From positions 1 through 52,262 of the IMG/VR virus record IMGVR_UViG_3300038372_000007: a stretch of DNA of 52,262 nt; one strand, 5' to 3'. Position 1 is the stretch's first letter. Each line of letters begins with the position of its first letter. The notes under the pieces are model-generated. The model saw only the letters and a list, made by a program, of their open reading frames with translations. It was not told the origin of the DNA and ran no database searches. Shown in pieces: positions 9,406-46,060 of the stretch. A program made the translations under genes and the position numbers. This DNA is from a virus (lineage: Duplodnaviria; Caudoviricetes).

Positions 9406-10407
9406 ATGAGTTGGCGGTTTCGCAAGAGCATCAATCTCGGAGGCGTGAAAGTCAACCTCAGCAAAAGCGGGGTCGGCATGAGTGTCGGCGGGAAAGGACT
9501 TCGAGCGGGGATAGGACCGAAGGGACCTTACCAATCGATGGGAATTCCAGGAACGGGTCTTTACTCTGTGAACTATGCGTCGAGCGGGTCGAAGAACGCA
9601 CCGGCCAGGACGCCTGCCGGTAGCGTCCCCGTCTCGTCGTCGGTTGGGTTTGAACAGATGCCTTCGCATGGCGCGTTGGGGCTAGGCACGATGTTCAAAT
9701 CAGGTTGCCTCTTCTTCACGCCGCTCCCGATGCTGATCTTCGGCTGGAAAATCGCAGCGATAGCCGCCGCGGTCATCCTGCTTATCTACCTCGTGGAGAA
9801 AAAGTCGGACGTGGGAAAGGAGGCGGCCCTGTATAGCGGCGTGCTAGAGAAAGTATCGACCAATCGATACGAGGAAGCCGTGGCCGGACTACACGAGCTC
9901 TCGCAACGGCCCAAACCTGCCGCAGGTTTGCACCTCGCCCTGGGATACTGCTATCTGAAGAGTGGACAACGGGAGCAGGCGCTCAACGAGTACCGCGGAT
10001 ATGTCGAGAAGGTTCCGTCTGACACGGCGACCGCCGTGCGCTTCGCGGGATATCTCATTGAGGAGAATCGGTTGGAAGAGGCGCTCGCCATCCTTGACCG
10101 GATGCCTCCGCTGCCCAGTCTGGGCCTTATTCTAACGTGGATGAAGGGAATGTGTCTCCTGGGTCTGGAACGTCCGGCATTGGCCATCGAGGTGTTAAAG
10201 ACCGCACCTTTGAGGCAGAAACTACCTGACCCGACTCTTACCTCGATCCGGTACACACTCGGGAGAGCGTACGAACTCAGCGGGAATCGAGAGAGGGCTG
10301 CCGCCCTGTTCAGGCGGGTCTATGCCGACAACGCGAACTATCAGGGCATCCAGGACGCGCTGGCGAGAGTGGAAGGCGTAAAGACCCCTGATGAACCCGA
10401 GGCGTGA
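9406..10407 (+). CDS. DUF4236-domain membrane protein with TPR repeats
   Basis: N-terminal WRFRKSINLGGVKVNLSKSGVGMSVG...IPGTGLY, a TM segment, and TPR-like helices (LALGYCYLKSG, YTLGRAYE). Confidence 0.85.
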   Translation: MSWRFRKSINLGGVKVNLSKSGVGMSVGGKGLRAGIGPKGPYQSMGIPGTGLYSVNYASSGSKNAPARTPAGSVPVSSSVGFEQMPSHGALGLGTMFKSGCLFFTPLPMLIFGWKIAAIAAAVILLIYLVEKKSDVGKEAALYSGVLEKVSTNRYEEAVAGLHELSQRPKPAAGLHLALGYCYLKSGQREQALNEYRGYVEKVPSDTATAVRFAGYLIEENRLEEALAILDRMPPLPSLGLILTWMKGMCLLGLERPALAIEVLKTAPLRQKLPDPTLTSIRYTLGRAYELSGNRERAAALFRRVYADNANYQGIQDALARVEGVKTPDEPEA

Positions 10408-12023
10408 ATCCAGCCGTGAAGGTCGCCGGGTACTTCAGGGTGAGCACCGAGGAGCAGCGAGAGCGCTCCACAATCCAGAACCAGCTCGACTTCTACCGGA
10501 AGTACCTGGACCTCCACGGCCTCCAGGACGCCGGGGTGTACCCCGATGACGGGGTCAGCGGCACGATCCCGCTGGAGGAGAGAACACAAGGCGCGAAGCT
10601 TCTAGCTGATGCGAAATCCCACCTCTTCAGCCAGGTCCTCGTCTACCGGCTTGACCGAATAGGCCGCGATCCCCGCGTCATCCTCAACGCGGTCCATGAG
10701 TTGCAGCAGGCAGGCGTGACGGTCAAGTCCATGACCGAACCCTTCGAGACCGGCACCGTCTACGGCGAGTTCATGATGAGCATCCTGGCGGGCGTGGCCG
10801 GGCTGGAGAGAGGGGTATTCCTGGAGAGGAGCGCCCTCGGCACCGCGAGAGCCGCCAGGGACGGCAAGTGGCTCGGCGGCATCGTGCCCTACGGATACCG
10901 GGTGGACGGCGAGGGGCGGTTGGAGGTATCCGAGGCGCCGCTCGAAGGCGTCAACATGACGGAGGCCGGGGTCGTGCGCCTAATCTACGCCTGCGTCGCG
11001 GAGCGGGGCTGGAGCACCATCAAGGTGGCAGACCATCTCAACGCGCTGGGCATCCCGACCAGTTACGGCAAGGACGGACGCTTGGTGAAGCGAGGCCAAC
11101 GCAAGGTCCGCACGGCCAACCTCTGGAGGCCGGGCCGGATCAGAAACATGGTCGTGAATCCGACGTACCGGGGAGAACACCAGTACGGGAAGCGTACAGC
11201 CAAGAAGCGGGAGCTCATTCCCAGGTTAGTCCCCGCCATCGTGGACGACGCCACCTGGCGCAAGGCCCAGGCCGTTCTCCGGAGCAACCTCATCGAGGCC
11301 ACTCGCAACGCGAAACGCCCGTATCTCCTGCGGGGCCTGGTGGTCTGCGGGACTTGCGGACTGCATTACGGCGGGACCTCATACAAGGGACCCGGCGGCA
11401 AGCTTAAGGCGTACTACGTCTGCGGGGGCAAGACGGCATACCGGGGGCCGCTCCAGGGAAGATGTCGCAACTCGAACGTCCCGGCCGAGTGGCTGGAGGA
11501 GGCGGTTTGGGAGGACCTCATGGGTTTCATCCGCAATCCGGGCGACGCCCTGCGGAGGTTGCGAGAGGACGCCGGGGAGCCGAAGACCGGGGATACGGCC
11601 GCTGAGCGCAGGAACCTCGAATCCGCGCTGGCGGGGAAGGACGTTGAAAGGCAGCGGGTAATGTCGCTCTACCGGCGCGGGTTCGCCAGGATAGGAGACG
11701 TGGAGGTCCAACTGCGGGAGGTGGAGCGCGAGGAGAAGGCGCTCAAAGAAGAACTGGAGAGCTTGGTGAGAGACGAAAGCGACCGGGCGGGACAGGCGGC
11801 CAGGTTCGAGTCCGCAGAGGCGCTCCTTGACTCCCTGCGCGAGTCCGTGACTGGCGACGTGCCGTGGGAGAAGCGGAGAGAGTTGGTCAAGTTGCTGGTG
11901 AAGGAGATCCGCGTGAGCCCGCCTGCGGACGGCGGCAGGAAGGCGGTGGTCGAGGCGACGTACCTGTTCTCCCAGGTAACCTACCGCACGGGCATGGGTT
12001 CATATAGCAACCTGGGAGCATAG
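10404..12023 (+). CDS. Large serine recombinase (integrase)
   Basis: YFRVST catalytic Ser, DDGVSG, RLDRIGR, recombinase domain (PYGY), zinc ribbon (CGTCG...YVC) and coiled coil. Confidence 0.95.
   Translation: MNPAVKVAGYFRVSTEEQRERSTIQNQLDFYRKYLDLHGLQDAGVYPDDGVSGTIPLEERTQGAKLLADAKSHLFSQVLVYRLDRIGRDPRVILNAVHELQQAGVTVKSMTEPFETGTVYGEFMMSILAGVAGLERGVFLERSALGTARAARDGKWLGGIVPYGYRVDGEGRLEVSEAPLEGVNMTEAGVVRLIYACVAERGWSTIKVADHLNALGIPTSYGKDGRLVKRGQRKVRTANLWRPGRIRNMVVNPTYRGEHQYGKRTAKKRELIPRLVPAIVDDATWRKAQAVLRSNLIEATRNAKRPYLLRGLVVCGTCGLHYGGTSYKGPGGKLKAYYVCGGKTAYRGPLQGRCRNSNVPAEWLEEAVWEDLMGFIRNPGDALRRLREDAGEPKTGDTAAERRNLESALAGKDVERQRVMSLYRRGFARIGDVEVQLREVEREEKALKEELESLVRDESDRAGQAARFESAEALLDSLRESVTGDVPWEKRRELVKLLVKEIRVSPPADGGRKAVVEATYLFSQVTYRTGMGSYSNLGA
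11967..12020. other. attP site (predicted target: host comM/YifB gene)
   Basis: Inverted arms CTCCCAGGT (11969-11977) and ACCTGGGAG (12010-12018) flank a core. On the minus strand, 12003-11983 reads ATG AAC CCA TGC CCG TGC GGT = MNPCPCG. Confidence 0.8.
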
Positions 12024-27159: not shown

Positions 27160-30100
27160 TTACGCCACGCTGTTGCATATGATGGCGTATGCTACGCCGT
27201 CGATGTCCACCTTCAAGTACCTCTTGGTGGTGCCCGTCGGTTCAGCAGCGACCAGCATATCCCTGGCACCGCCGGGTTGGATGGTGAGGAAGTTGTCCGG
27301 CAAATTGATGCCCTGGAAGTAGATGCCGGTCTTCGCCACGCCCAATTCCTGCAAGGCGCACACGATAAACGCGTCGAGGCCCGTGCCCTTCGTGGTATTG
27401 AACTTGTGCAGGAATATGTTCGAGAAGTAGTCGGTCGCGCCCAGTTCCTTCATGTCCACGACCAGCCCGCTGACCAGGTTGGTCGCCAGGTTGGGGCTGC
27501 CACTCAGGGGCATGCGGATGTACATGCCGTTGATGTTGCCCGTCCCGGCCACCGTGACCTGATCCAGGATGCCGTTGAACCGCGTCGACGCGCCGCCGGT
27601 CCTGCTGCCGCCAGCGGTTACGAGAAGGGAGACCGCGTTCCCGACGCCAGTGCCGAACGTGGTGCTGTCGGTCAGGGTGATCCCCAGGCCGTTGTCAGCA
27701 TCCGTGCCCGCTATGGTGCCGAGGGCCAGGTCAAGTGCCCCTGCCGCGCTGTTGTTGAGGGTCGCCGCATTACGGAACCTCACGTCAGCCGTCGGGGTCC
27801 CCATGCCGTTGAGGTCGATGCCGTAAGTCCAGTTGCCTGCTGAGGGTGCCAGCACACGCACGCCCGAAGCGACCCCTGTGATGGTGCCGCCCAGGTTCCC
27901 GCTTACCGAGACACCGGCAGCCTGAGAACTTGCTGCCAGAGTGCTGCCGGATGCCAGATCCAGCGAGGCGTGCAAGGCTGATACGATTGCTCGCGCACCG
28001 GCGCTGTTGTCAATGGTCACTCCCGTAGGTATCAGGAAATGAGCCCAGACACCCGACAGGTTGCCGATGCCCGTGTAGTTGGCATATACCCACTGCGAGG
28101 CGTGCAAGGCACTGGCAGACACGGCGATCCCGCCAGCGACGACCTTGGTTAGGATGTGCCGGACCATGACGGATTCAGTAGAACCTGCGGTCATGGCCAC
28201 CCCGCCGTCATCGGCGAAGAAACCCGAACCCTGATAGTTCGTGGCGTTGAGGGCCACGCCGCTGCCAGACGCGGTAGCGGAACTGCCGACGCGGATGCCC
28301 CGCGTGACCGTGGCCGGAAGGACGATACCCGTACCATCGACCCGGAAGACCTCGGCGATAGTCGCGCCGCCAGTGACCGTCTCGACCGTGAAGGCTCCAG
28401 CTTCCGCGCCCGCAGTAACGCCCGTCATCAGGGCCTTGAGATTGACGACCGCCTTCTGCGCGGGAGTCGTATTCATCCCCGAAGCGATGAGCTGCCAGAT
28501 CACGTCGTTGGCTGAACAAACTGCCGCTGCGCGGGCCTTCGTCGCGGTCCAGGTCACGCCGGTCGCGTCAACTTCGATGTTCTTCGAGGCTATGTCGCCG
28601 AGAGAGTTGACGCTGAACCTGGTGGCAGCAGCCGAGTCGGTGACTATGAAACTGGTCGCGCCTGCGGCTTCGGGAAGGACCACTGTGACATCTGCCATCA
28701 GTTCGAGACGAACCGACGCAGCCGCACCACCGAACATCGTACTGAAGAATATCCGACCACTCTCCGTGCCAGCCCCAACGTTCATTATCTGGGCCACCAT
28801 GTTTCCCACGGTCTTTAGGGCAGGAGTCGCGTTCATACCTTGGAAGTCCAACTGGTAGATGGTGTCGGTGGCCACGCAGACCGCACCCGCCGCGCGAGAC
28901 TTCTTCGAGATCCAGTAGGTGCCCGAGGCATCGGCTTCCTTGTTGTAGGAAGTGATGTCGCCCGCCGTCGAGATCCCGAACTCGGTGAGGTTCGCACCGA
29001 AGGCAACGGCGCCCTTGGCGTTGACTGCGCCTGCCGCAGACACCGTGAACATGGTGCTGACGACCGCGATGGAGCCATCTGCCGCCACCGTGAACTCGGT
29101 CCCGTTCGTACCCGCACCGATGGTGCCCTTGAGAAGCGTATTGCCTGATGCGGCGGTCACGACGAACTTACTAGCGCCTACGGTGAAGTCTCCGGTAGAC
29201 TTGACCGTGCTGGCCGCAACGACCGCACCGGCAGCCGATACCGTGAACCCGGTCGTCGCTATCGCGAGAGAACCGTCAGCCGCCACAGTGAATGTGGTTC
29301 CGTTGGTTCCTGCGCCGAACGTGCTCTTGAGCACCGTGGCTCCTGAGGAAGCCGTCACCACGAACTTATCCGTACCGACCTGGAAGTTCACCGTGGAGTT
29401 GACCACGTCCGCGATGGAGAGCCGCTCCGCTAAGGCCCCGTTGACCGCCGTGAGGAACGAGAGCGAACCGTCCTCGGACCCTGCGGTCTTGTCGGTGAGG
29501 ATCGCCTTGAGTTCCGCGACCGTCACGAGTGCAGGCGTGGCGTTCATGCCCTGGGCTATGATGTCGAGCAGCACGTCGTTGTTCGAGCACGCCGCACCCG
29601 CCGCCCTGGATTTCTTGACCGTCCATGTAGTCCCGGTGGCGTCAGCCTCCTGGTTGTAGGAGGAGAGGTCAGCCGAGGTCGCATTGACCGTGAACTTGGT
29701 TGTATTGACCGAGAAGTTTCCGACTACGTTGAGGGTCCCGGAGAAGGTGATCGCCGCGACCGTGAACGCGAGGACTCCGCTCACCGCGTTGTCGATGAGC
29801 GCCCCGTTCTGGAGCCGGAAGTCGCTGGTGAACGCCTTGTGGTCCGTAGGCGTGCCGCCGTTTACGTCGACCGCGATGCTCGTTGTCTGGGCCGCAGACG
29901 AGTTGTTGAAGATCACGAGGCCCTGGGCGAGAGTCGAACTGCCTCCGTTCGCGCCGTCGAGCGAAACCTCGAAACCCCTAATCGTGGTGCCGGTCTTGGT
30001 CTTGACGTCGACTGAGACGTAGACCCCGGTGAGGCCGTCGATGTTGGCGCCGTTGCCCGACGGGTCCGCGGCCCGCGCCTTGATCTCCGCGCCCCTGATG

Positions 30101-30285
30101 GTGCCGGTGCCCGTAGTCGTGCCGTTGGTGGCCACGGCGTAGATGCCTCTGAGCGTCCCGGTGAGGGCCGTGGAACCCTGGGTGATCTGGGCGTAGACGC
30201 CGCTCGCGCCGTTGGCGACCTCGCAGACCTGCTTCTGGTCGAGACCGCCGACCAGTTGCCTGCCTCGGGTTGCTCTGTTGTACAC
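27160..30285 (-). CDS. 1041-aa repetitive fibre-like protein in the head module
   Basis: A/G/T/S-rich beta strands with internal repeats. AAGGAGG RBS. Confidence 0.7.
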   Translation of the reverse strand: MYNRATRGRQLVGGLDQKQVCEVANGASGVYAQITQGSTALTGTLRGIYAVATNGTTTGTGTIRGAEIKARAADPSGNGANIDGLTGVYVSVDVKTKTGTTIRGFEVSLDGANGGSSTLAQGLVIFNNSSAAQTTSIAVDVNGGTPTDHKAFTSDFRLQNGALIDNAVSGVLAFTVAAITFSGTLNVVGNFSVNTTKFTVNATSADLSSYNQEADATGTTWTVKKSRAAGAACSNNDVLLDIIAQGMNATPALVTVAELKAILTDKTAGSEDGSLSFLTAVNGALAERLSIADVVNSTVNFQVGTDKFVVTASSGATVLKSTFGAGTNGTTFTVAADGSLAIATTGFTVSAAGAVVAASTVKSTGDFTVGASKFVVTAASGNTLLKGTIGAGTNGTEFTVAADGSIAVVSTMFTVSAAGAVNAKGAVAFGANLTEFGISTAGDITSYNKEADASGTYWISKKSRAAGAVCVATDTIYQLDFQGMNATPALKTVGNMVAQIMNVGAGTESGRIFFSTMFGGAAASVRLELMADVTVVLPEAAGATSFIVTDSAAATRFSVNSLGDIASKNIEVDATGVTWTATKARAAAVCSANDVIWQLIASGMNTTPAQKAVVNLKALMTGVTAGAEAGAFTVETVTGGATIAEVFRVDGTGIVLPATVTRGIRVGSSATASGSGVALNATNYQGSGFFADDGGVAMTAGSTESVMVRHILTKVVAGGIAVSASALHASQWVYANYTGIGNLSGVWAHFLIPTGVTIDNSAGARAIVSALHASLDLASGSTLAASSQAAGVSVSGNLGGTITGVASGVRVLAPSAGNWTYGIDLNGMGTPTADVRFRNAATLNNSAAGALDLALGTIAGTDADNGLGITLTDSTTFGTGVGNAVSLLVTAGGSRTGGASTRFNGILDQVTVAGTGNINGMYIRMPLSGSPNLATNLVSGLVVDMKELGATDYFSNIFLHKFNTTKGTGLDAFIVCALQELGVAKTGIYFQGINLPDNFLTIQPGGARDMLVAAEPTGTTKRYLKVDIDGVAYAIICNSVA

Positions 30286-30367: not shown

Positions 30368-30706
30368 CTATCTCCCTAAGACACAGGCCCCAGGGGGGGC
30401 TACCTCCTGGAGCATCTTCTCCTCCCGCTCCTCGCGGGCGTCCTGCTGAACCGGACTCAGAGCGCGGCCGGAGTGCCGCTTCTTGCCGTGGGCGTCCCTC
30501 TCCGCGAAGCCGATGAACTCCGCCCCGCATGCGGCGCAGACGAAGGTCTCCGCGTGCTTCTGGAACGCCGAATCCACGACGCCGAAGTAGCCGAGGCGCA
30601 CGAGCTTCTCGTCGTTCCTAGCCCCGACTAGTTCGGTTATCTGCCCCCGGTCCAGCTCCTTGCCGGCGTACTCGAAGGGCCGCTTGGCCCAGTACCGTTT
30701 GGCCAT
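30368..30706 (-). CDS. Hypothetical protein with a C2H2-like zinc finger
   Basis: FVCAACGAEF...RDAHGKKRH. Confidence 0.65.
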   Translation of the reverse strand: MAKRYWAKRPFEYAGKELDRGQITELVGARNDEKLVRLGYFGVVDSAFQKHAETFVCAACGAEFIGFAERDAHGKKRHSGRALSPVQQDAREEREEKMLQEVAPPGACVLGR

Positions 30707-31662
30707 TACACGATCACCGCCGAAGCGTAGAGCCCGGCATCAGCGCCGACTCTGCGCTGGTCGAAGTACGTGTTGCCCTCTATGATGTCCACCTCGCGCT
30801 CCTCGTCCCTCATGCGCTTGATGTACTGGAGCGCGTTGGCCACGACCTGCCAGACGAAGGTGTAGCAGGCAGCCGGGGTCATGAGGCTCGGAGTCGCGGG
30901 GACATAGAGCATCAGGGCGTTCTTGCCCCAGATGCGGGTGTACGTCACGCTGGCCTCAGCCGTGCCCTCGGCCGTGGCGGTGTAGAGAGCCTTGCCGATG
31001 AACACCCTGTCGAGCTCAGCCAGGGTCTTGAACAGGTCGAGAGACACTTGCCCCTTCTGCGTGTACTTGATCGTGTCCACGAGGTCGGGGTGCCACTTGA
31101 GTATGCTCCAGACCTGCTTGCCCATGACGAACGTTCCCGGCTCGCGGCCGATCAGGGCCTCGACGGTGTCCCGCCAGTCCGTTATGTCGGTGAGCGGGGA
31201 GCTGTTCGCGTAGTCGCTCCACTTCGTGAAGTCCGTGGTGCCGACCTTGTTGGTCGTCCAAACACTGGTCGTGAACAGGGTCGACGCGAAGTTCCGCTCC
31301 CTCCTGAGCTGGATCTTGTCCGTCACGAACTCCGTGGCCTCACGGTCGAGGTTGAACGGCGCGTCCGCGTTGGCGCGATCCTGGTCGGCGATCTCCTTGC
31401 GGTAGCTGTATTCCGGGCAGAAGTACGTGTTCGTGAGGTCAACCGTCCAGCCGCCGCCCTCCGACTTCGTTCCGGGAGCCCTCAATTTCGCTTCGTCGCG
31501 GAACCAGTGGGACTTGTCGTACTGCGGGATGAAGTCCGATTGCTTCTTTACTTGCACGATGGGGCAAATCTGGTCGGCGATGTATTCCAGGTTCTTGTAG
31601 CCGACCGAGATGTTGGTGAGCAATCCGTCTACGTGCAGATCACTGCCTAGAGGTCCAGGCAT
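30706..31662 (-). CDS. Major capsid protein (lambda gpE-like family)
   Basis: DGLLTNISVGYKN...IADQICP, RAPG, KWSD...PLTDI and synteny. Confidence 0.9.
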   Translation of the reverse strand: MPGPLGSDLHVDGLLTNISVGYKNLEYIADQICPIVQVKKQSDFIPQYDKSHWFRDEAKLRAPGTKSEGGGWTVDLTNTYFCPEYSYRKEIADQDRANADAPFNLDREATEFVTDKIQLRRERNFASTLFTTSVWTTNKVGTTDFTKWSDYANSSPLTDITDWRDTVEALIGREPGTFVMGKQVWSILKWHPDLVDTIKYTQKGQVSLDLFKTLAELDRVFIGKALYTATAEGTAEASVTYTRIWGKNALMLYVPATPSLMTPAACYTFVWQVVANALQYIKRMRDEEREVDIIEGNTYFDQRRVGADAGLYASAVIV

Positions 31663-31697: not shown

Positions 31698-32084
31698 CTA
31701 TACGTTGAGCTGGAACGGGCCGGTCAGCTTCACGCGGATGATGGTCCCGAGCGCGGTGGATGCATCCAGGGCCTGGCCCAGGACGTAGTCCTTGTTCGTG
31801 GACTTCTTGATCCCATGGCCGCTCGCATCGGTCCCGATCCAGTTCCCGACGCTGATACCCGTGCCACTGCCGTCCGAGTACACCTTGGAGATGCCAAGGA
31901 ACATCACGGCTGCGGCTTCATCCTCGTCGGGTTCGTTCTGCAAGACGCCGTAGGGAATGTCCCCCGCGCCGTCGCAAACGTCAACCTGGTCCGCTGCGCT
32001 CAGCTCCACGATGTGGTACTGGCAGGCGGTCAGGTCGTTCTCAGCTTTTGCCGAGTGAGTCCACAGACTGAACTCGGTCGCCAT
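31698..32084 (-). CDS. Capsid cement/decoration protein (DUF2190-like)
   Basis: GVLQN, GISKV, GTDASG and GQAL. Precedes the MCP. Confidence 0.75.
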   Translation of the reverse strand: MATEFSLWTHSAKAENDLTACQYHIVELSAADQVDVCDGAGDIPYGVLQNEPDEDEAAAVMFLGISKVYSDGSGTGISVGNWIGTDASGHGIKKSTNKDYVLGQALDASTALGTIIRVKLTGPFQLNV

Positions 32085-32120: not shown

Positions 32121-33059
32121 CTATACCTTGACTACCGTTTCTTTCTTGTACTGCTCGTAAAGCTCGGGGTGCTCGGCCATGACCTTGCCCATAGCCTCGG
32201 CCGAAGTCGCCTTCGCGTCCTTCTGGACGATGCCGGCCACCATCTGCATGACCTTCTCGGTCGCAGACCCGGCTACCGGCGCGCCGCCGCCCCTGCCGAG
32301 CTCCGCGAACAGCTGGCCCTTGGCGATGGCTTCGCTGGACGCCTTGAGCACGGGGTAGAGCTTCGCGTAGAGCGCGGGGTCCTTTTCCTCGATGCCCTTG
32401 AGGACCGCGCCGAGGTCCTCGGCCTTGGCCCCCGGAAGGTCCGCCAGTTCTGCCGCTGCCTTCTCGACGTACTCCTTCAGGACGCGCTTGTCGCGCTCTT
32501 CCTTGGCCACTTTCTCGGCCTCGATGGCGCGCTTGGTAATGGCCTCGTTCTCTTTCCAGAGGGCCTCGATGGCCGGCCGGACAGCCTCGGGAACGCCGGA
32601 GAAGTCCATCGTACCGTCGGCTTTCTTGACGGGGAAGGTGTACTTATCCTTGTCCTTGTCCGCCTGCTTCTTGGCCTCTTCGACCTTCTTGGCCTCTTCC
32701 TCTTGCTTCTTCTTGTCTTCCTCGTCTTTCTGCTTCTGCGCCGGCTCAGGGTATCCGTAGCCGCCCAGCTCAGCCAGGGTCTTCAGGACATCCTTCGGCA
32801 GTTCGTCCTTGTACGCGCCGAGCAGCCTGAGAGCGCCCTTGACAGCGTTCTGGCCCTTCTCCGAGAGCTTGGCCGCCTTGAGCACCTTGTCCACCTTTTC
32901 CTCATCCTCGAGATCCGTCTCAAGGACTGCCTTCAGGATCGCTTCGTCCAACATCCCAGATTCCTCCTCAGACTTCAAGATGAGAAACTTTTTCCTATTT
33001 GCCATCTTAGGCACCATCGCCACCTCAAGGGCGTCGAGGTCCTTAAGCCTTTGCGTCAT
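32121..33059 (-). CDS. Capsid scaffolding protein
   Basis: K/E-rich coiled coil with EVAMVPKMANRKKFLILK. Lies between the protease and cement/MCP genes. Confidence 0.75.
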   Translation of the reverse strand: MTQRLKDLDALEVAMVPKMANRKKFLILKSEEESGMLDEAILKAVLETDLEDEEKVDKVLKAAKLSEKGQNAVKGALRLLGAYKDELPKDVLKTLAELGGYGYPEPAQKQKDEEDKKKQEEEAKKVEEAKKQADKDKDKYTFPVKKADGTMDFSGVPEAVRPAIEALWKENEAITKRAIEAEKVAKEERDKRVLKEYVEKAAAELADLPGAKAEDLGAVLKGIEEKDPALYAKLYPVLKASSEAIAKGQLFAELGRGGGAPVAGSATEKVMQMVAGIVQKDAKATSAEAMGKVMAEHPELYEQYKKETVVKV

Positions 33060-36000
33060 GCGACCGCCTCCCGAACTCCGAAACCTCCGACAGAGAAGCC
33101 TTGATATTCGCCCTGCTTGATGGCGGACCAAAGCTTGCTGTCAGAGACATGTACCCCCAACACCCAGCTCCCCTTCTTCACCTTCTGACCCCCCATTTCG
33201 AACGCATCGGGGGCCACGTAGGACTCGACCACTTCGGCGTCGGCCTTCTTCGAATGCCGGTCGCTGATTACCCGCGACTTCACGAGGAAACGGTGCGCCG
33301 CCTTCTCGATCTCATCGGCGGAGATCACATCGCCCTGCGTGTCAACAGTCTCAGGTTCAAGCACCACGCCGTAGACCAACTGCTTCTCATCGTCGGCCTT
33401 GAGGATCTGGGCGAAGTACTCTTTGGCTACCCTGGCGGAGGTCACGTCTATCAGCCTCGGTTTGCCACCTTCCTCGGGGTCGCGCCAGATCAGGTGCCGT
33501 TGTCCCTTGCCGCGAAGCTCGCTCGTCACATCAGCGAGGTCGTGGGCCTTGGCATAAGGCGTTTGCGAGGTTGGCTTATCTATCAGCCAGACTCTCCGCC
33601 CGCCGATAGGCGCGAACTCGACGAGGAACCGGCCCTTGAGCTTCTCCCCGTGGAGGAATACCTCGAACATGTGCTCCCGCCAGCAGCCCATCTCGTAGGC
33701 GCCGCGGTCGTAAGCGAAGAACTTGCTGTACTTCTCGCTGGTCGCCCCGACGCCGCCGGGCTCAGTCACCATCGGTTTTCCAACACCGACATCGAGCCAG
33801 GCTGAGGGCTGAGCCAGCTTGAACTGCCCTTGCAGGTTGTCGTCCTGCGGGAGCGTCGTCAGGCGGTCGCCGCCCGCCCTGCGGTTGTCTTGCGTCGTGC
33901 CCAGGAACACGCTGAAGCCCCAGAGTTTCCCATCGGCTTCAAAGCGCAGGTCACCGTGCAGGCTGTGGGAGGTGTCGAGCAGCTCCTTCTCATCGAGCTT
34001 GCTCTCGTCCTCGGAGAGCCCGCGAAAGTGATGGTGATAGGTATAACGCCCTTTGCCATCGGGCGGGAACATCCGAAACCAGTTGTCAGCCCAGAACTTG
34101 GCCGCGGCCTCGGCCGTGGTCTCGCCCTCGTCGTCGGCCTTCTCAATGGTGCCAGTCTTGAGCCATCGGGCCAGTGCCCTATCCCAGGCGTCATCGCTCC
34201 AGCCTAGTTCCTTGACCTGAGCCTTGCCAAGAACCTTATCGAGCGGAGGCTCGCAGTTGAATGCCCCAACATCCGGCATCTTCACCGCAATCCACCGGGC
34301 TTTACCGCTTTCCACAAGGTAGTACCGCTCGCCCCAGCCATCGTTGATCCGCCAGATGGAGCGACCACTCTCCGAAGCCACTTCCCTTGTGCTGTGGCGC
34401 TCGACATTCTCCCCGGAGTCCCTCATGGTTGACGCATAAGCTTCCTCGACCATGGCCTTCGGATCGGCCTTCTTCACTTCTTCCAGCGCCCGCCCTATCT
34501 GCTTGAGCTTCCGCGCCAGCTCGCCGGAGTCGCCGAACCTACGGATCGCGGAGGGGTGAGGCAGCGTGAAGTCCGCCCGGTCGCCCAGCGCCGCCTTAGC
34601 CGTCTGGCCCAGGGCCACCACGATACCGGGCTGCACCTCGTCAAGTTGCCTGGCAAGCCACGGCTTCCACTCCTCGACTTCCGCAGGAGTAGGTTCGCGG
34701 ACGTTGCCCTTCTCGTCGGTAAGGTAGAGGGGCACGGTGTTGGTCAAGAAAACATCCTTGCGGCTGAGGCCGAGGGGCGTCAGGTACGACTCGTTCAGCA
34801 CCGCGCCGGCAGGACCCACGAAAGGCTCGCCCCGGGCGGCCTCGGTCGCTCCAGGGGATGCCCCGACGAACATGATCCTGGCATCCTTGGGCCCGGCGCC
34901 GGGCACGATCTCGCCCACGGACTTTTGCAGGACCTGGCCGCGCTCGGCTACGTCGATGGCCTGGGCCGCGGTGTACGGCTCCTTGCGCGTGTCGTCCACG
35001 TCCACCGGCCGCGCCCCGAGCCACGCGAGGTGCTTCTTCTCCTCGTCGGGAAGGAGTTCCAGGATTTCGACCGTTATCACATCGCTGACCTGGGCCTTGA
35101 CCTGGCTGGTCGAGAACGTCTTCCCCAGGTCGATGTATTCCTTGTCCCCGACCTTCCGGGTGTTCTTCCAGTCCATGCCCACGCTCGGCAGGAGGCCGCA
35201 ATAGTAGTTCACCGTACCGGGAGTCTTGGTCTGCTGGACTTCCAGCACCTTCACTTTGAGCTCGCAAATTTTCTTGAGCTTACTCCAAGAATCCGTTACC
35301 CCGTCCAGCTCGTACTTCCCGCTCGCCGTCTTAGCCACGAGACCCTCGGAGCGGTCCTGGCTGAACGCCCACCTGGCCGCCACCTTGAGCTCGGGCAGCG
35401 TCTCGACCCAGCGGACCTCGGTGATGCCGAAGCCGGTCTTGCCCTTGAGGTGCTTCTTGTCGAACTCCTCAAGGCTCTCTCGCCGCTCCTCGAAGGGCTT
35501 GTCGTGCAAGTCCTCCTGCCAGTACGGCAGGTCAAAGGCGGTGAGCACCGGCGTCTCGTCCTCAGCGAACTCCGGCTTGTCGGCGTTGAACCGCATGAGG
35601 TCGGGCCTTGGCTCCCGCTTGCCGCCCCTCAGGATCCCGATGTCGCAGTCCAGGATGAAGTCGGAGTCGACCTTCTCCAGCGCGGCTTTGAGTCCGGGGA
35701 ACTTGCCGAGTTGGTCCTTGCCCATCTGGCCCTCGAACCAGAGTTCGACGCGGGAGGCCTTGCGGATCGCCAGGGACCGGAAGCCATTCAGCTTCGGTTC
35801 AACATCCGCCTTGCCCTTATCCTTCGCCCACTTCTCCCAGAGCTCGTCTACCGTGTAGAGTTCGGTGTACAGCGCCACCTGCGGCTTCGGAGGGACGAAC
35901 CTGTCGAAGGGTTCCAGCGCCGCCTTACTCACGCCTTCCGGCTTGCGCAGGATGCCTCGGACGTACACGAGGTCGCCGTTCTCGATTTCCTCGAGCTTCT

Positions 36001-37888
36001 CGACCTCGAACTTCGGGCGGCCTTCGAGGAGGTTATCCTGCGTCCAGAAGGCGAAGGCGGACTTGTTCCACCAGGAGCGGTGAGAGGGATGAGCGAATGC
36101 ACCCTCGCCCTTCGTGCTCGGCACCTCGAACACGAACCGCCCTCCCGGCTTGAGCACCCGGTGGACCTCCGCCATGATGCGCTCCTTGTCCGAGAGGTGC
36201 TCCAGGACGTGATTGGCGCGGACCTCGCTGGCGGAGGCGTCGGGGAGAGGAATCCCGGATTCCAGGTCCGCTACCTTGTCGACCTTCGGGCCGGGGATCT
36301 TGTCGATACCCAGATAACCATCGGGCCGGGAATCGCGACAGCCCAGATCGACCCGAAGGGCTTCTGCCTTGGCAACCCGCGCTGGCTTGAAGTTCATCAC
36401 CAGGAGTTCGTGGCCTGTCCTCCAATGTCGCGATGCTGGCATCCCCGGGCCCGTCGCAGTGCGAGGCACTTCCACTTCCTTGATCGTCCACGCCTTCGAT
36501 GCCTCGACCAGGTCTAGCGATCCCTTGTTGCAGGACAGGATGAACTTGCCCCTCACGGAGGCGAGCACCTTGACCAGTTTCTGAAAGTGCTCGGTCTCAT
36601 CCTTGTCCCCAGGGTAATCCACGGTGTCGCCCGCCGGATAAGGCGGGTCGAGGTAGAAGAGCGTCGACGGCGCATCGTGCTCCTTGATGACCGATAGCGC
36701 GTCCATGTTGAGCAGGGCCACGTCTTTGAGACGTTCCTGCAGTTTCTGTAACCGCTCGATGGAGACGTTGGCGACATCGCCGATGCCGCGGGCATGTATG
36801 AAGTTCCCTGCCTTGGCGTGTGCGCCCTGAAATCCAAACCGCGAGATGTACCACACACGGTAAGCGTGGTCTGCTAACCCCTGGGGATGCGAGTTGGCGA
36901 GCCGGTCGAACCGTTCTTCATTCGCTTCCCAGTTCCGCCCCGCAAAGGCGGTCAACTCTTCATCAGAGGCGCCCTTGATGAACCTGTAGACGCTCATGAT
37001 CCCGGCGTCGCTGTCGTTCAGGACTTCCTTGGGGGACGGCTCCTTTGCCCAGAAGACCTTCGCCCCGCCTGCGTAAGGCTCGACATAGGCGGTGTGCTCC
37101 GGGAATAACGCAATAATCTCGTCCGCGATCCTGGACTTGCCGCCCACGACGTGGATCGGCCCGAGCAGGCCGCCCTCCTTGACCACCTGCCGCTTCGGGT
37201 CCTCGCGCCTGAGCACCAGACTATAGCAGGGCACGAAGTCAGCGTGGCTCCCCTGCGGCGAGTCGATGAAGTGCAGGGTCCCCTTCTTCTCCGGGTCCAG
37301 CACCTTCCTCACCGGCAGCCATACGTTGTCCGACTGGATCAGGAAGTGCTCGCCGCCGCCGTCGCGGTTGGCGCGGATCAGCACGTCTATGTCGTTCGGC
37401 TTCTCCTTGCTCACGGCGGAGCCTACCACGGAGACGAAATTGGGCACGACCACGACCTCCGCAGGCAGGTTTGCAAGCTTCGCCTCGATGCTCTGGGCCT
37501 TCTTCACGCCCTGCAGCTTGCGGGCTTCCTGGACGAGGTCGGAGGACTCGTCGTAGTGGATTCCCCGACGTTCCAGTTCTTCCAGCGCGAACAGGGCGGC
37601 GTTGACCACGCCCTCGACCGGGTCTCCCCGCTTCTTGGCCGCGCCGTACCACTGATGCAGCCTAAGCCAGGCCATCCGCACATCATCCTCCGGCGCGTCC
37701 TTGAGCTTCTCCGGCCGGATGTCAGCGAGCGCCATCTTCTCCAGGAACGATGGCTCCTCAGGCTCGCGCCAGCGGGCCTTGCCGCCGGCCGAGGGCAGGG
37801 CGAGCTTGTGCAACTCCGTCATCAGCCACGACGGGAGATACTTCTTGGCGCTATTGAGAAGTGCTTCGAGGTACTCGGTCGTGGGCAC
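33056..37888 (-). CDS. ~1610-aa polyprotein: NTase-like + Dam methylase + class I SAM MTase + ATP-dependent DNA ligase + UDG + LigD-type phosphoesterase + XkdF-like prohead protease
   Basis: Motifs in order: VVGS..DIDV; GGKS/EPYAGG/DPPY; DLGC/HVLEH/VLKPGG; EPKLNG/EGLVAK/WSKLK; GASPG/PFVG/TNTV/HPS; HHH/HGDLRFE/DRG; VYGVVLEP/VESY/GFSVGG. GTG start after GGAGG overlaps the MuF stop. Confidence 0.88.
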   Translation of the reverse strand: MPTTEYLEALLNSAKKYLPSWLMTELHKLALPSAGGKARWREPEEPSFLEKMALADIRPEKLKDAPEDDVRMAWLRLHQWYGAAKKRGDPVEGVVNAALFALEELERRGIHYDESSDLVQEARKLQGVKKAQSIEAKLANLPAEVVVVPNFVSVVGSAVSKEKPNDIDVLIRANRDGGGEHFLIQSDNVWLPVRKVLDPEKKGTLHFIDSPQGSHADFVPCYSLVLRREDPKRQVVKEGGLLGPIHVVGGKSRIADEIIALFPEHTAYVEPYAGGAKVFWAKEPSPKEVLNDSDAGIMSVYRFIKGASDEELTAFAGRNWEANEERFDRLANSHPQGLADHAYRVWYISRFGFQGAHAKAGNFIHARGIGDVANVSIERLQKLQERLKDVALLNMDALSVIKEHDAPSTLFYLDPPYPAGDTVDYPGDKDETEHFQKLVKVLASVRGKFILSCNKGSLDLVEASKAWTIKEVEVPRTATGPGMPASRHWRTGHELLVMNFKPARVAKAEALRVDLGCRDSRPDGYLGIDKIPGPKVDKVADLESGIPLPDASASEVRANHVLEHLSDKERIMAEVHRVLKPGGRFVFEVPSTKGEGAFAHPSHRSWWNKSAFAFWTQDNLLEGRPKFEVEKLEEIENGDLVYVRGILRKPEGVSKAALEPFDRFVPPKPQVALYTELYTVDELWEKWAKDKGKADVEPKLNGFRSLAIRKASRVELWFEGQMGKDQLGKFPGLKAALEKVDSDFILDCDIGILRGGKREPRPDLMRFNADKPEFAEDETPVLTAFDLPYWQEDLHDKPFEERRESLEEFDKKHLKGKTGFGITEVRWVETLPELKVAARWAFSQDRSEGLVAKTASGKYELDGVTDSWSKLKKICELKVKVLEVQQTKTPGTVNYYCGLLPSVGMDWKNTRKVGDKEYIDLGKTFSTSQVKAQVSDVITVEILELLPDEEKKHLAWLGARPVDVDDTRKEPYTAAQAIDVAERGQVLQKSVGEIVPGAGPKDARIMFVGASPGATEAARGEPFVGPAGAVLNESYLTPLGLSRKDVFLTNTVPLYLTDEKGNVREPTPAEVEEWKPWLARQLDEVQPGIVVALGQTAKAALGDRADFTLPHPSAIRRFGDSGELARKLKQIGRALEEVKKADPKAMVEEAYASTMRDSGENVERHSTREVASESGRSIWRINDGWGERYYLVESGKARWIAVKMPDVGAFNCEPPLDKVLGKAQVKELGWSDDAWDRALARWLKTGTIEKADDEGETTAEAAAKFWADNWFRMFPPDGKGRYTYHHHFRGLSEDESKLDEKELLDTSHSLHGDLRFEADGKLWGFSVFLGTTQDNRRAGGDRLTTLPQDDNLQGQFKLAQPSAWLDVGVGKPMVTEPGGVGATSEKYSKFFAYDRGAYEMGCWREHMFEVFLHGEKLKGRFLVEFAPIGGRRVWLIDKPTSQTPYAKAHDLADVTSELRGKGQRHLIWRDPEEGGKPRLIDVTSARVAKEYFAQILKADDEKQLVYGVVLEPETVDTQGDVISADEIEKAAHRFLVKSRVISDRHSKKADAEVVESYVAPDAFEMGGQKVKKGSWVLGVHVSDSKLWSAIKQGEYQGFSVGGFGVREAVA

Positions 37889-38790
37889 TAGTCTCGCCTC
37901 CGCGAAAGACCTGCTGCGCACCGGCATCCTGGATGAGCCGGGGGACCTGTAAGCCCTCCTGGAAAGACTCCGCCGATGGGAGCCCGCTCGCCGTCCAGGT
38001 CGAGGCACTCCTGGCACGCTCTGTCGTCCGGCGTGGTTATCCACTCCATCTCGAACTCGTCGGGGTCGATGAGGCCGGCATCCACCGCCTGCTGCCAGCT
38101 TTCTTGCTGACCGGCGTTGGCTGCAGAGATGGTTTCCGTCCGTCCGATGAGTTCCGCCCTGTCTCTCAGCAACCGCCCCGCGTACCTCTCCGCCTGCCAG
38201 TCCGCCCGTTCCTGGGTGATGCCCGCCTCCAACTGCCGCGCCTTGAGGTTCTCGACCGCACGGCTCTGCCTTTCGGTGAGGCCGATGTGGCCCTGGATCA
38301 TCTTCGCCTGCTGGTAGGGATGGCCGCCCTGCTCGAAGGCCCGCTGCACGATATCCTTCACGGCGGCTATCGTCTCGTCGCTGACCTGCCTGATGAGCTC
38401 TCCAGTGTGCTGGGTGACGAAGCTGACCGCCCTCGGGTTCAGCACGTCGAAGGTGAGGCTCACCTTGAACTGCCGCTCCATCCTGGCGGCTACCGACGTG
38501 CCGACCGCAGCCACCAGACCCTGGAGGATGTTCTGGACCTTGACCGCGTCCATGCCGAAGTCCTGGACGCCGACTATCGCCTGGGCCTTGACAAGGTCAC
38601 GGGCCTGCAGGGCGTCCGCCAACTCACTGACAGCGACCCTGCCCTTCGCCCGCTCGACCGACTCCAGGAACTCCTGTTGCAGAGGCTCCAGCCTGGCGTC
38701 CGCCAGCCGGTGTATCAGCCGCCACTCCGGTTCCTGGGCCTGGGCCGCGGCCTTCTTGATGTTGACCGGCGCAGGCCTCACGACGAACAT
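37888..38790 (-). CDS. MuF / SPP1 gp7-like minor head protein
   Basis: RAELIGRTE, WITTPDDRACQEC and PPAHPGCRC. Confidence 0.9.
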   Translation of the reverse strand: MFVVRPAPVNIKKAAAQAQEPEWRLIHRLADARLEPLQQEFLESVERAKGRVAVSELADALQARDLVKAQAIVGVQDFGMDAVKVQNILQGLVAAVGTSVAARMERQFKVSLTFDVLNPRAVSFVTQHTGELIRQVSDETIAAVKDIVQRAFEQGGHPYQQAKMIQGHIGLTERQSRAVENLKARQLEAGITQERADWQAERYAGRLLRDRAELIGRTETISAANAGQQESWQQAVDAGLIDPDEFEMEWITTPDDRACQECLDLDGERAPIGGVFPGGLTGPPAHPGCRCAAGLSRRRD

Positions 38791-40073
38791 CAGTCCTCAG
38801 TCCCCTTGGCCGGCATGTGCGCGACCTGGCGGATGTACTTCTCCAGCGTCTCGTCGGGGAAGAGCGGCGCACCGGCCAGCGCCATCTGCGCGAGGAAGGC
38901 ACCGAGCTCGGCCAAGTCGACGTCTTCGAGGTCCCCGTGGGCCAAAACCGGGTATTCCTTGACCTTGAAGCTGTTGAGTTTGAAGAGCCTCGGTATGGCG
39001 TCCGTGTTGAACACGTCCTGGACCTCGTCCAGGAACGCGCCGATGGCGACGGCGAAGAGGTGGGTCTTGCTGGATGCCAGGGCGAAGCTCCCCACCTTCT
39101 GGCTGCCGAGCAAGATGAAGTCAGCCAAACAGGTGGCCGCGATCTGCGTGTTGTAGCGGTTGATCACCGTGTCCGTCGCGAACTGCCTCGTGCCGCCGGT
39201 CGAGAGGAGGGTCAAGTCGTAAGTCTTGTTCCCGCTCGCGTCGTAGACCAGCGGCATCAGTATGCCTTCCTGCTCGTCGCGCCGGATGCTCGTGGCGAGG
39301 GTCTTGTAGGCGTCCCGGACCGTGACCTCGGCGGCGGTGGTCGGGTTGGCGACGTTAGACGGCACCCAGACGACGGGCAGGCCCGCCAGGTCGCGCTCGA
39401 CGCCGATACCCTCGATGACCTCTATATTTTTCTTAAAATACCATGATCTGTAAGAATTGCGTAAAATCGAGCGCCCCTCGGGATTCCCCTTCGTCGTCTC
39501 GGTGCGGAAGAGCAGCGCCTTCTCGATGGGGATCGTCCTCAGCTTGTAGTCCGGCGGGGCGCTCTGCGTCATGGCCGTGAGATCGCCGGCATCGTTGAAT
39601 ACCCACTCCAGGAGGGAGGTCTGAGCCCGGATGGGAATCTTGCGCCAGCCGATGCGTCCGTCGTCGTACTTGCTCCGCTTCGTCGGGTCTGTGGAGTCCC
39701 CGCCACGGCGCTTGTAGACCAACTCACAGAAGGCCCAGCCGTACACCAGCATGGACAGGGCTTCGCTGATCACGTCCTGCCAGGACTCCGACATGTCGCC
39801 ACGACATGACTCCAGGAACTGGGCCGCGTCCCTGGCCTCCGCCGATTCGTCTGCCGGGTCCACGCGCCAGTCCACCTGCCGGCAGAGCATGCGAATGGCG
39901 AATAGGACGGCGCCGATTATGGGGTCGTTGTCGGACATCTCCCGGTAGACCGTGGCCGCCTTGGTCCCGGCCAGTTCGGTGAGCCATTCCTCGGAGATGT
40001 AGCCGCCCCACCTATTTAAGCCGGTGCTGCCTAATTCCACCAGGGGCTTGAACTTCACCTGCTCTTCGGCCAA
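38790..40073 (-). CDS. Portal protein (Mu gp29/DUF935-like)
   Basis: Follows TerL. GNPEGRSILR, IGVERDLAGLP and GSFALA. Confidence 0.88.
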   Translation of the reverse strand: MAEEQVKFKPLVELGSTGLNRWGGYISEEWLTELAGTKAATVYREMSDNDPIIGAVLFAIRMLCRQVDWRVDPADESAEARDAAQFLESCRGDMSESWQDVISEALSMLVYGWAFCELVYKRRGGDSTDPTKRSKYDDGRIGWRKIPIRAQTSLLEWVFNDAGDLTAMTQSAPPDYKLRTIPIEKALLFRTETTKGNPEGRSILRNSYRSWYFKKNIEVIEGIGVERDLAGLPVVWVPSNVANPTTAAEVTVRDAYKTLATSIRRDEQEGILMPLVYDASGNKTYDLTLLSTGGTRQFATDTVINRYNTQIAATCLADFILLGSQKVGSFALASSKTHLFAVAIGAFLDEVQDVFNTDAIPRLFKLNSFKVKEYPVLAHGDLEDVDLAELGAFLAQMALAGAPLFPDETLEKYIRQVAHMPAKGTED

Positions 40074-44305: not shown

Positions 44306-44679
44306 GACTGGGTCTCCGCTTGCTTACGGATGGCTGCCAGATTCTCCACGTCCTCGATGCTTTTCGCCATGAGCCATTTGCCGCCGTGCTCCTGCACGTC
44401 TCGCCTGAAGGCATCCTGGTCCTCGGACACGCGCCCCTTCGCCGTCTTGATCTCGATCCAGACTGTCATGCCGGTGCGGATCGCCGTCAGGTCCGTCATG
44501 CCCGGGTGGCTGCCTAGCCCTTGCTGGTTGCGGATAACGAACCAATCATGCATGCGGAGGAAGTCTCGGACCTGATGTAGCAGGCCGGTCTCCGTGACCT
44601 TCAGCCCGGGGACCTCCTCCGCTGGCACGGTGGCCTTGATCCTAGCCTGGTAGCCTTGCATCCCTCGGCGCATGGTCAT
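44302..44679 (-). CDS. VRR-NUC domain nuclease
   Basis: PGMTDL...WIEIK...GRVSEDQ. Confidence 0.85.
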   Translation of the reverse strand: MTMRRGMQGYQARIKATVPAEEVPGLKVTETGLLHQVRDFLRMHDWFVIRNQQGLGSHPGMTDLTAIRTGMTVWIEIKTAKGRVSEDQDAFRRDVQEHGGKWLMAKSIEDVENLAAIRKQAETQS

Positions 44680-45500: not shown

Positions 45501-46060
45501 CGTGACACCGCCTCCGCTCTCTCCTCGCTCCGACCCGGATCTGTCTGCCGGCGGTACATAGAGATCAGGTGCATTGCGTATACCGGCCCTCGGCCTTCCA
45601 ACAAGACCGCCAAGAAGAACGCCCGCCACGTAGCCGATCCTCGCATGCGCGCCAACTTCACCGCGGCCGGGATCTTGTGCGGTGCCCAGGGTTGCTGTTT
45701 CGGCGCCTTCGGTAGCTTGGGCCTCTGCCCCCGCTCCCTGCGCGGCAGCCCGGCCCGGTCGGTGATGCGGTACACGACGGCGCTCCCAACATGGAACATG
45801 GCCCGCATCACGCAGATAGGCGTCCCCTTCCGGTACTCAGCGAGGATCCCGGCGGTCTTGCCCTTGTCTGCACCCTTGATGCTTGACAGGGTTTTGGCTT
45901 GAGGCCCCTGTCGCCGGATGATGCCTACATTGCGGAGCCACCTGCCAACGGTTGCGTATTTGTGGTGATGCTTCGACGCGAGGCCTCGGATCGTCGCGCC
46001 TGCCGAGTATTCGGCGGCCATCGCATCTCGGTCAGACCATGTAAGCCAGGGTTCAGTCAT
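45497..46060 (-). CDS. Basic HTH-repeat hypothetical protein
   Basis: Two YxxGxxI HTH-like repeats. Confidence 0.55.
   Translation of the reverse strand: MTEPWLTWSDRDAMAAEYSAGATIRGLASKHHHKYATVGRWLRNVGIIRRQGPQAKTLSSIKGADKGKTAGILAEYRKGTPICVMRAMFHVGSAVVYRITDRAGLPRRERGQRPKLPKAPKQQPWAPHKIPAAVKLARMRGSATWRAFFLAVLLEGRGPVYAMHLISMYRRQTDPGRSEERAEAVSR

Follow-up and report, generated by a model that had tools for sequence, protein, structure and literature searches.

We analysed a stretch of 52,262 nucleotides from a virus of the Caudoviricetes (Duplodnaviria; IMG/VR record IMGVR_UViG_3300038372_000007, positions 1 to 52,262; hereafter the window), the record being that of a complete virus bounded by direct terminal repeats. 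Among its head genes lies a gene, referred to below as the polyvalent gene, encoding one chain of 1610 amino acids (aa) in which a series of DNA-modification and repair-like domains precedes a C-terminal prohead protease of the XkdF (Peptidase_S78_2) type. We give an even chance to the reading that this product is a capsid-targeted, self-processing polyprotein which, with XkdF as its carrier, would supply methylation and DNA end-healing and sealing enzymes together with the incoming genome.

At this locus one open reading frame (ORF), with no interruption, spans 33056..38044 on the minus strand. Translation probably starts at a GTG (37888) that shares bases with the TAG of the upstream MuF gene (TAGTG), giving the 1610-aa product. 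At the other end, the TGA stop and the start codon of the scaffold-like gene overlap as ATGA; this start is an ATG at 33059 with GGAGG eight bases upstream. The polyvalent gene is thus translationally coupled on both sides. Genes for TerL, a Mu-type portal and MuF lie upstream of it, and genes for scaffold-like, cement-like and major capsid (MCP) proteins downstream. The initial annotation of the window, made from its letters, had placed a product of about 1610 aa in the protease slot (MuF - X - scaffold - cement - MCP), and both the ORF and the neighbour matches bear this out.

The contig is metagenome-derived, and six related contigs carry the gene as two ORFs, divided at different places (L009, L011, L018, L049, L059 and L061), which could be frameshift errors or genuine splits; an assembly chimera, or separate genes read through by error, therefore had to be considered. 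Against this, all 1610 codons are open, the same domain order occurs in 71 independent viral contigs and in 52 database proteins, and Logan contigs of 4 runs, all from one study and two of them possibly the source of the record, matched the stretch with 0-1 differences, zero joints and zero indels. By these comparisons the gene is not a chimera or misassembly, an explanation that we virtually dismiss, and the concern over misassembly raised in the initial annotation is answered by the Logan contigs and the 71 IMG/VR relatives.

The XkdF domain matched Pfam Peptidase_S78_2 over residues 1494-1606 (111 bits against 24; profile positions 4-124 of 126) and PHROG 3017, 'head maturation protease', at 7.4e-41; by sequence, no solved relative of this domain was found. 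D1516, H1545 and S1599, invariant in 34/34 XkdF sequences, are a candidate catalytic triad. A profile of the domain collected 15,077 cluster representatives at E<=1e-3. The protease sat at the extreme C-terminus in 144 of the best 150, some of which may be fragments, and these 144 had more than 400 residues in front of it in 47 cases, 151-400 in 57 and 150 or fewer in 40. Variable N-terminal cargo, which the initial annotation had suggested surveying for in XkdF proteins, is thus common in this family. Among 120 listed XkdF proteins of at least 306 aa, 86 were C-terminal fusions and 34 were PBSX-like with an N-terminal protease; other Pfam families were present in 54/120, including uracil-DNA glycosylase (UDG), ligase, D12, S-adenosylmethionine (SAM) methyltransferases (MTases), 2H phosphoesterases, NUDIX, ParB-like and histidine phosphatase families.

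The adjacent scaffold-like protein is a predicted binding partner for this protease. Its N-terminus, LEVAMVPKMANRKKFLILK, is its most conserved part and the predicted XkdF docking site, with the family consensus EVSLV.RGAN.KKFLI.K (in fuller form L.DL...EVSLV.RGAN.KKFLI.K); K29 is invariant, and S14, V16, A20 and N21 are conserved in at least 90% of 27 sequences. Complexes of the XkdF domain with scaffold residues 1-60 were predicted in three runs and with three controls. The docking score had a median of 0.70 (runs 0.66, 0.83, 0.70) against 0.00 for the best control, 0.70 being a score reached by 58/80 solved complexes and 2/110 mismatched pairs. The runs shared at least 63% of contacts, with a predicted local distance difference test (pLDDT) value of 41-44 for the partner, and in the predicted complex scaffold residues 1-18 lie against XkdF residues 118-121, which belong to the Ser1599 strand, and 60-65, in the region of His1545. 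Binding is supported by this prediction but not demonstrated; such docking would give the chain a route into the procapsid. A similar motif, V-x-[LM]-V..(G)AN...hydrophobic-x-K, opens the gene that follows the stand-alone XkdF of Pakpunavirus and Rhizobium phages. We also considered that the scaffold N-terminus might be a missing XkdF strand that other proteins carry in cis. The pattern was unmatched in 33/34 C-terminally extended PBSX-type proteins, and since these lack the motif after the domain, 'docking' was kept and 'fold completion' dropped.

A hydrophobic-x-Lys tripeptide occurs in every inter-domain linker (VVK237, VAK507, VSK655, LQK989, VKK1140, IEK1250, VAK1489 and ILK1497). All 7/7 domain boundaries have one within 10 aa, out of 35 sites in 1610 aa (random placement, P ~6.5e-4), and a stricter form of the motif is found at 6/7 boundaries (P ~5e-5), figures that are weakened by the boundaries having been set after reading the sequence, by the Lys/Ala/Glu-rich composition of the linkers and by the non-independence of homologous linkers. 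In homologs the tripeptide is also found on either side of unrelated inserts, and in 3xD12-XkdF proteins it lies between the three MTase repeats; in the scaffolds it comes after the docking strand, at the invariant K29. Its presence at every boundary points to a likely self-cut polyprotein in which these would be the XkdF cleavage sites. On this pattern the product looks like a polyprotein with a site at each boundary, a feature that was not part of the initial annotation.

The putative payload consists of enzyme-like domains whose order agrees between Pfam and the initial annotation, with coordinates within a few tens of bases. Two are MTases. The D12/Dam-class domain matched Pfam MethyltransfD12 (PF02086) over residues 248-457 (71.2 bits, cut-off 22), with EPYAGGA at 270-276 as the SAM-binding glycine loop and an intact DPPY at 414-417; it scored below the Dam cut-off of TIGR00571 (75 against 114.85) and is an insert relative to the family core. 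The smaller class I SAM MTase matched Methyltransf_11 over residues 538-587 (40.5 bits against 21.2).

The ligase module that follows matched Pfam DNA_ligase_A_M (PF01068) over residues 691-872 (47.8 bits against 26.2). Its motifs read K699-L-N-G-F-R (I), L-D-C-D-I-G (III), S-E-G-L-V-A-K (IV) and W-S-K-L-K-K (V), and K699, E848-G849 and K870/K872 were invariant in 21/21 relatives. Canonical ATP-dependent DNA ligases carry KxDG in motif I and DGE in motif III; the window ligase departs from them by an N for the motif I Asp and a D for the motif III Glu. The initial call of an ATP-dependent ligase is therefore sustained by the Pfam score and by K699, but not by motifs I and III. The nearest named families were the LigD and non-homologous end-joining (NHEJ) ligases of NCBIfam, whose equivalog cut-offs were missed by far (50.8 against 989, 49.8 against 227.75 and 46 against 373.2), and a single-sequence search found no solved ligase at E<0.2. 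Two ligase types occur in the family: the 101 sequences, which were not de-duplicated, comprised 51 with KxDG, 44 with KxNG and 6 in which no motif was found. In the KxNG ligases the motif III Glu is replaced by Asp, Asn or Ser. A SAM MTase lies directly upstream of the ligase in 36/44 KxNG sequences against 0/51 KxDG sequences, which indicates that the MTase and the KxNG ligase move as one swappable cassette of two domains.

With such a cassette the substrate may be a non-standard one, for instance RNA ends. Instead of or besides a DNA kit, the protein could hold an RNA-repair kit in which the SAM MTase, the KxNG ligase, the 3'-phosphoesterase (PE) and the nucleotidyltransferase (NTase)-like domain would heal and seal tRNA cleaved by host anticodon nucleases, perhaps methylating the junction like bacterial Pnkp/Hen1 or rebuilding 3' ends like CCA-adding enzymes. 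The confinement of the MTase to the KxNG type argues for this, as does the combination of KxNG with Asp or Asn for the motif III Glu, which is not that of a standard DNA ligase. LigD PE enzymes process 3'-ribonucleotide and 3'-phosphate ends, and other XkdF fusions bear 2H phosphoesterase ('2'-5' RNA ligase') domains. We nevertheless consider an RNA kit improbable: the best named matches of the ligase are LigD-type DNA ligases, UDG-superfamily domains and Dam methylases act on DNA, the small MTase resembles generic class I methylases with no specific likeness to Hen1, and the core recurs in the canonical KxDG clade, where the MTase is missing.

The next domain matched Pfam UDG (PF03167) over residues 996-1119 (90 bits against 24.3) and was closest to UdgX and family 4 (5e-17). 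Motif A reads GASPG (1009-1013) and motif B LPHPS (1109-1113), with PFVGPAG and LTN also recognisable; H1111 of motif B is conserved in at least 90% of sequences. Family-4 UDGs have GE(A/Q)PG as motif A and four Fe-S cysteines. The Glu at this position was found in no member of the family, residues 996-1130 contain zero cysteines, the scores fell below the NCBIfam family-4/UdgX cut-offs (85.8 against 125.3, 88.8 against 250 and 99.2 against 189.95) and the KRRIH loop of UdgX is missing from the domain in the alignment. What had been annotated as a family-4-like UDG thus belongs to the UDG superfamily, but the marks of family 4 are wanting.

The PE domain, proposed in the initial annotation as LigD-type, stayed below the cut-off of Pfam LigD_N (PF13298) over residues 1308-1422 (17.4 against 31.1 bits), and its profile retrieved only PE chains from the PDB, at E values of 0.067-0.77. 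Yet in an AlphaFold model of residues 1125-1495 (pLDDT 82), the seven best Foldseek PDB matches were all LigD PE structures (E 2.4e-7 to 1e-4, target TM 0.59-0.81). H1287, H1311-x-D1313-x-R1315 and H1406 are invariant, the H-x-D-x-R residues in 21/21 and in 42/42 sequences, and this motif aligns with HYD(L/F)RLE of known PE chains. At the level of the model, the LigD phosphoesterase fold of residues 1262-1478 is confirmed. Between the UDG-like and PE domains lies a 110-aa insert that the polyvalent protein shares with L001, L003 and P0004; it had no match in the Atlas and nothing informative in the viral structure library. In the distant relative P0021, a related piece (motif ...KELGW..(D/E)AWDRAL..WL...) occupies residues 523-638, between ligase and Dam MTase, so that the insert behaves as a mobile domain.

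The NTase-like domain stands on weaker ground. It has a G156-S157...D166-x-D168 pattern that is invariant in 42/42 sequences, and its language-model neighbours in the Atlas were NTP_transf_2/Polbeta (score 0.84-0.88). On the other hand, no Pfam or NCBIfam model matched it, an NTase Pfam label was absent from all of its short homologs, a profile of the N-terminal 245 aa retrieved nothing among PDB sequences at E<=10, and the Foldseek PDB matches of this region to pol beta and MNT were weak (E>0.2, none at E<=0.001). The pol-beta-superfamily identity assigned in the initial annotation is thus plausible but not established: the invariant motif agrees with it, and the weak or generic fold matches of the N-terminal model keep the call weak. 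In front of this domain, the conserved helical domain gave only generic helical hairpins in a wide VIA-align fold search (Z <=7.4). The first 51 residues form a helical segment found mainly in relatives that have a separate MuF gene: among 58 loci, 24 had both, 26 neither, 5 MuF only and 3 the segment only. In the MuF-less clade the polyvalent gene begins right at the end of a longer portal (~507 aa). This co-occurrence could reflect contact with MuF, or merely two clades.

The departures from canonical motifs also suggest that the cargo domains might be decayed and serve as inactive ballast, that is, as internal bulk, auxiliary scaffold or non-catalytic DNA-binding 'internal proteins'. In line with this, the family-4 Glu is missing from the UDG-like domain, in other clades together with the Asn and Phe, ligase motifs I and III are non-canonical and the NTase-like domain is unrecognisable to Pfam. 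However, K699, EG, KxK, H-x-D-x-R and GS..DxD are invariant across sequences just 40-55% identical, DPPY is intact and each ligase type keeps its own motif set. Decay of the payload is, in our view, very improbable.

Precomputed Pfam lists of 52 long relatives found in a database search showed XkdF in 40, XkdF with ligase in 30 and XkdF with ligase and UDG in 19. The conserved core comprises the helical, NTase-like, ligase, UDG-like, PE and XkdF domains and measures ~1036 aa in its minimal form. Swappable inserts are set into it: the Dam and SAM methylases and the 110-aa insert in the window phage, and metallo-beta-lactamase-fold, NUDIX or 2H domains in others. Judged from these sequences, the NTase-like, ligase, UDG-like and PE domains are the conserved payload and the methylases are add-ons. 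Two short relatives (L042 7172-9427 and L046 7914-9842; 643-752 aa from stop to stop) have just the helical N-domain, PE and XkdF, so that the first two of these look like the most basic cargo. In IMG/VR, 71/88 candidate stretches encoded relatives in the same head-gene slot, and the order polyvalent gene, scaffold, cement, MCP was seen in at least 43 of the 71 loci. Ten loci with downstream DNA had no scaffold homolog at E<=1e-4, and the remaining loci stop at or inside the gene.

The above findings suggest a model for how the polyprotein would work. The polyvalent gene would be expressed late, alongside portal, MuF, scaffold and coat, and the C-terminal XkdF domain would dock on the conserved N-terminal strand of the scaffold; because of this proposed docking, the whole 177-kDa chain would be co-assembled inside the procapsid. 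Once activated, the protease would cut the scaffold and its own chain at the hydrophobic-x-Lys sites of the linkers, as their distribution suggests, freeing the NTase-like module, the Dam MTase, the SAM MTase, the ligase, the UDG-like domain and the PE. By analogy with other head-loaded enzymes, the folded fragments may be retained as internal proteins of the head and pass into the next host along with the DNA. There, before phage gene expression, they would methylate the genome and mend damaged or nicked DNA by cleaning 3' ends, ligating nicks and recognising or removing an aberrant base. The system would probably serve to guard the incoming genome of this temperate phage against restriction, nicking or base-damaging defences. 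In a more general form, which we put forward tentatively and with less than even confidence, XkdF-type proteases would be a loading dock that clamps the scaffold strand, drags a polyprotein into the procapsid and cuts after Lys at every linker, with healing enzymes and methylases travelling with the genome.

Several points weigh against this model. The tethering of enzymes into the head through the protease, as claimed in the initial annotation, fits the conserved C-terminal fusion and the predicted docking, but packaging, cleavage, injection and all enzyme activities are steps that we infer for a phage that is uncultured. The 177-kDa cargo or its folded fragments would need to exit through the tail. 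MTases need SAM and ligases ATP, and both would be inactive in the free virion. The docking score is a model's confidence obtained from our own alignments, with an uncertain partner fold (pLDDT <50), and PBSX-type XkdF proteins have no docking motif in cis. The UDG-like domain without its family-4 Glu and the atypical KLNG/LDCD ligase could each be non-catalytic or have another substrate. Finally, the repair pathway is incomplete: Ku was not found in a family search of the phage genome, the AP endonuclease families Exo_endo_phos and AP_endonuc_2 had zero matches, and no recognisable polymerase was found, with no DNA polymerase among the ten large ORFs scanned. A complete base-excision repair or NHEJ pathway is therefore not encoded by the phage, and the base-excision and nick-repair chain envisaged in the initial annotation is not supported.

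The same domains could instead groom DNA in the cytoplasm late in infection. The fusion would then serve just for late, in-step expression, the enzymes would seal nicks, clean 3' ends, remove aberrant bases and methylate progeny DNA before or during packaging, and they would afterwards be degraded or left outside, with nothing injected. The position of the gene in the late head operon and its translational coupling on both sides are consistent with this, as is the availability of SAM and ATP in the cell alone; phage Dam methylases normally act before packaging, and the boundary sites fit cytoplasmic release as well as in-head release. Co-expression alone, however, fails to explain why the protease is fused at the C-terminus in 144 of the best 150 XkdF representatives, the predicted scaffold docking would carry the chain into procapsids, and prohead proteases become active within assembled procapsids. 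We consider cytoplasmic grooming rather unlikely, and retain the self-processing polyprotein loaded into the head as our model.

Table 1. Features of the head-gene region and domains of the polyvalent protein in the window
Feature	Residues	Position	Strand	Basis or remarks
TerL		40077-41453		
Mu-type portal		38790-40073		
MuF-like head morphogenesis gene		37888..38790	-	immediately upstream of polyvalent gene
Polyvalent gene	1610 aa	33056..37888	-	ORF and start/stop overlaps
N-terminal helical segment	1-51	37736..37888	-	
Conserved helical domain	52-135	37484..37735	-	R76, Q79, E92, N96 invariant
Nucleotidyltransferase-like domain	143-230	37199..37462	-	pol-beta superfamily pattern
D12/Dam-class N6-adenine DNA methyltransferase	246-500	36389..37153	-	
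Small class I SAM methyltransferase	512-632	35993..36355	-	DLGC 514-517, LGID 526-529
ATP-dependent ligase module	655-980	34949..35926	-	
UDG-superfamily domain	996-1130	34499..34903	-	
Lineage-specific insert	1141-1250	34139..34468	-	110 aa, beta sheet and helices
LigD-type 3'-phosphoesterase fold (PE)	1262-1478	33455..34105	-	
XkdF (Peptidase_S78_2) prohead protease domain	1498-1608	33065..33397	-	
Scaffold-like gene	312 aa	32121..33059	-	true start ATG 33059
Cement-like gene		31698-32084		
MCP, E-type major capsid protein		30706-31662		

The concept on which the model builds is known. Polyvalent proteins were defined in phages and conjugative elements by Iyer, Burroughs, Anand, de Souza and Aravind (2017; PMC5512222), whose main text describes such proteins with methylases, pol-beta NTases and C-terminal assemblin-like peptidases and predicts their packaging and autoprocessing. 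The window protein resembles them in combining six Pfam families and two further domains in one chain of 1610 aa, in being encoded directly downstream of portal and MuF, as it likewise is in related loci, in having DNA methylases and a candidate pol-beta-like NTase in its domain set and in its predicted packaging and injection. Unlike in the set of 2017, its peptidase is XkdF (Peptidase_S78_2), which a passage in a later paper of the same group calls 'unrelated' to the SH/assemblin prohead peptidases (PMC7824862). The main text of PMC5512222 mentions no XkdF, DNA ligase, UDG or LigD, uses 'ligase' for RNA ligases alone and has 'uracil' in one reference; nor does this main text describe a conserved repair core, boundary Lys sites or scaffold docking of the kind seen in the window family. 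Full-text literature on XkdF, on Peptidase_S78_2/PF14550, on prohead-protease/methyltransferase fusions and on virion-packaged ligase or UDG yielded no description of the architecture. The statement of the initial annotation that no characterised example was known thus applies to this ligase, UDG, LigD-PE and XkdF cargo as far as that main text goes, but not to polyvalent proteins as such: the concept is already published, and the novelty lies in the payload, the carrier protease, the putative boundary sites and the predicted scaffold docking.

Cultured phages had only stand-alone XkdF proteases of 156-200 aa, in the same slot, and in a collection of 50,697 phages no record covered more than 20% of the 1610-aa protein. 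The stand-alone proteins, such as those of Pakpunavirus vB_PaeM_B31 and Rhizobium phage RHph_I4, share the protease domain with the window protein at 30-48% identity and occupy a matching slot, with portal or MuF on one side and the scaffold, decoration and MCP genes on the other, but they carry no cargo. The PBSX-type XkdF proteins differ in that their protease domain is N-terminal, with a further 130-380 aa after it. The stand-alone XkdF genes of L073 (4902-5372; Pseudomonas phage vB_PaeM_B31), of many Pakpunavirus records and of L074 (4992-5591) are labelled 'DNA methyltransferase' or 'methyltransferase/capsid and scaffold', a label that was evidently transferred from MTase-XkdF fusions and that PHROG 1530 also bears; in practical terms, the stand-alone XkdF of cultured Pseudomonas phages is widely mislabelled.

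Bacterial LigD unites a ligase, 3'-end healing and a nucleotidyltransferase in one chain, as the window protein would with its NTase-like domain, and the two share the PE fold and its H-x-D-x-R motif. Unlike LigD, the window protein has no archaeo-eukaryotic primase-type polymerase, with a minimal pol-beta-like module in that place, and no Ku was found in the phage; UDG-like and methylase domains are added, and the whole is fused to a virion protease. Among phages, DarB of P1 and the capsid-targeting sequence and gp21 of T4 are known parts of head loading or processing. The P1 Dar system and the internal proteins and Alt of T4 embody the same concept of head-loaded enzymes (in P1 a giant protein with a methyltransferase) that are proteolytically processed and act, before phage transcription, on the injected DNA or next to it. 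In the window family, known from its sequences, targeting would instead proceed by covalent fusion to the protease and predicted docking, with ligase, PE and UDG-like domains as payload. Large eukaryotic DNA viruses, for example African swine fever virus, package Pol X, ligase and AP endonuclease. The proposed presence of ready-made repair enzymes in the particle would be common to this virus and the window phage, but the enzymes of African swine fever virus are separate proteins that make up a complete pathway, whereas the window phage has one polyprotein and no AP endonuclease was found in it. As head-packaged enzymes, Alt of T4 and DdrB of P1 are named in PMC5512222.

Other genes of the window bear on the lifestyle of the phage. 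By its large serine recombinase (10404..12023, plus strand) the phage is temperate, and a gene for a DUF4236 and TPR protein (9406-10407, plus strand) lies directly upstream of it; 9406-12023, the sole plus-strand block of the region, is probably a lysogeny module. Just downstream of the head genes, a 1041-aa ORF (27160-30285, minus strand) had zero Pfam or PHROG matches. Three further minus-strand genes encode, in this order, an SMC/RecN-like AAA ATPase of 717 aa (3886-6039), an MmcB-like DNA repair nuclease-family protein (44676-45629) and a Lin1244_N protein (47206-48255). A scan of contigs of genomes gave just 4 contigs from metagenome-assembled genomes, of four unrelated phyla, which are probably binned viral DNA, and no host was called. 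Heat damage as a rationale for repair cargo was dropped: the IVYWREL fraction was 0.391 over 24 phage proteins, for which the formula reportedly given by Zeldovich in 2007 to turn this fraction into growth temperature yields ~31 C, with no sign of a thermophile.

If the model holds, a large uncharacterised group of phages would have the head pre-loaded with activities for ligation, end healing, base recognition and methylation. The group counts 71 viral contigs, and the XkdF family to which they belong has ~15,000 sequence clusters, many of them with other cargo. Its members would have a transcription-independent means of surviving restriction, nicking and base-damaging defences, a mechanism undescribed for bacteriophages, and would form a phage counterpart of the virion-borne repair of giant eukaryotic viruses. 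The cassette of SAM MTase and KxNG ligase points to an unstudied ligase variant. The family would also be a natural modular system for packing proteins into capsids, in which the predicted docking strand and the Lys sites would provide simple rules for the entry and release of cargo that may be usable for loading foreign proteins into capsids.

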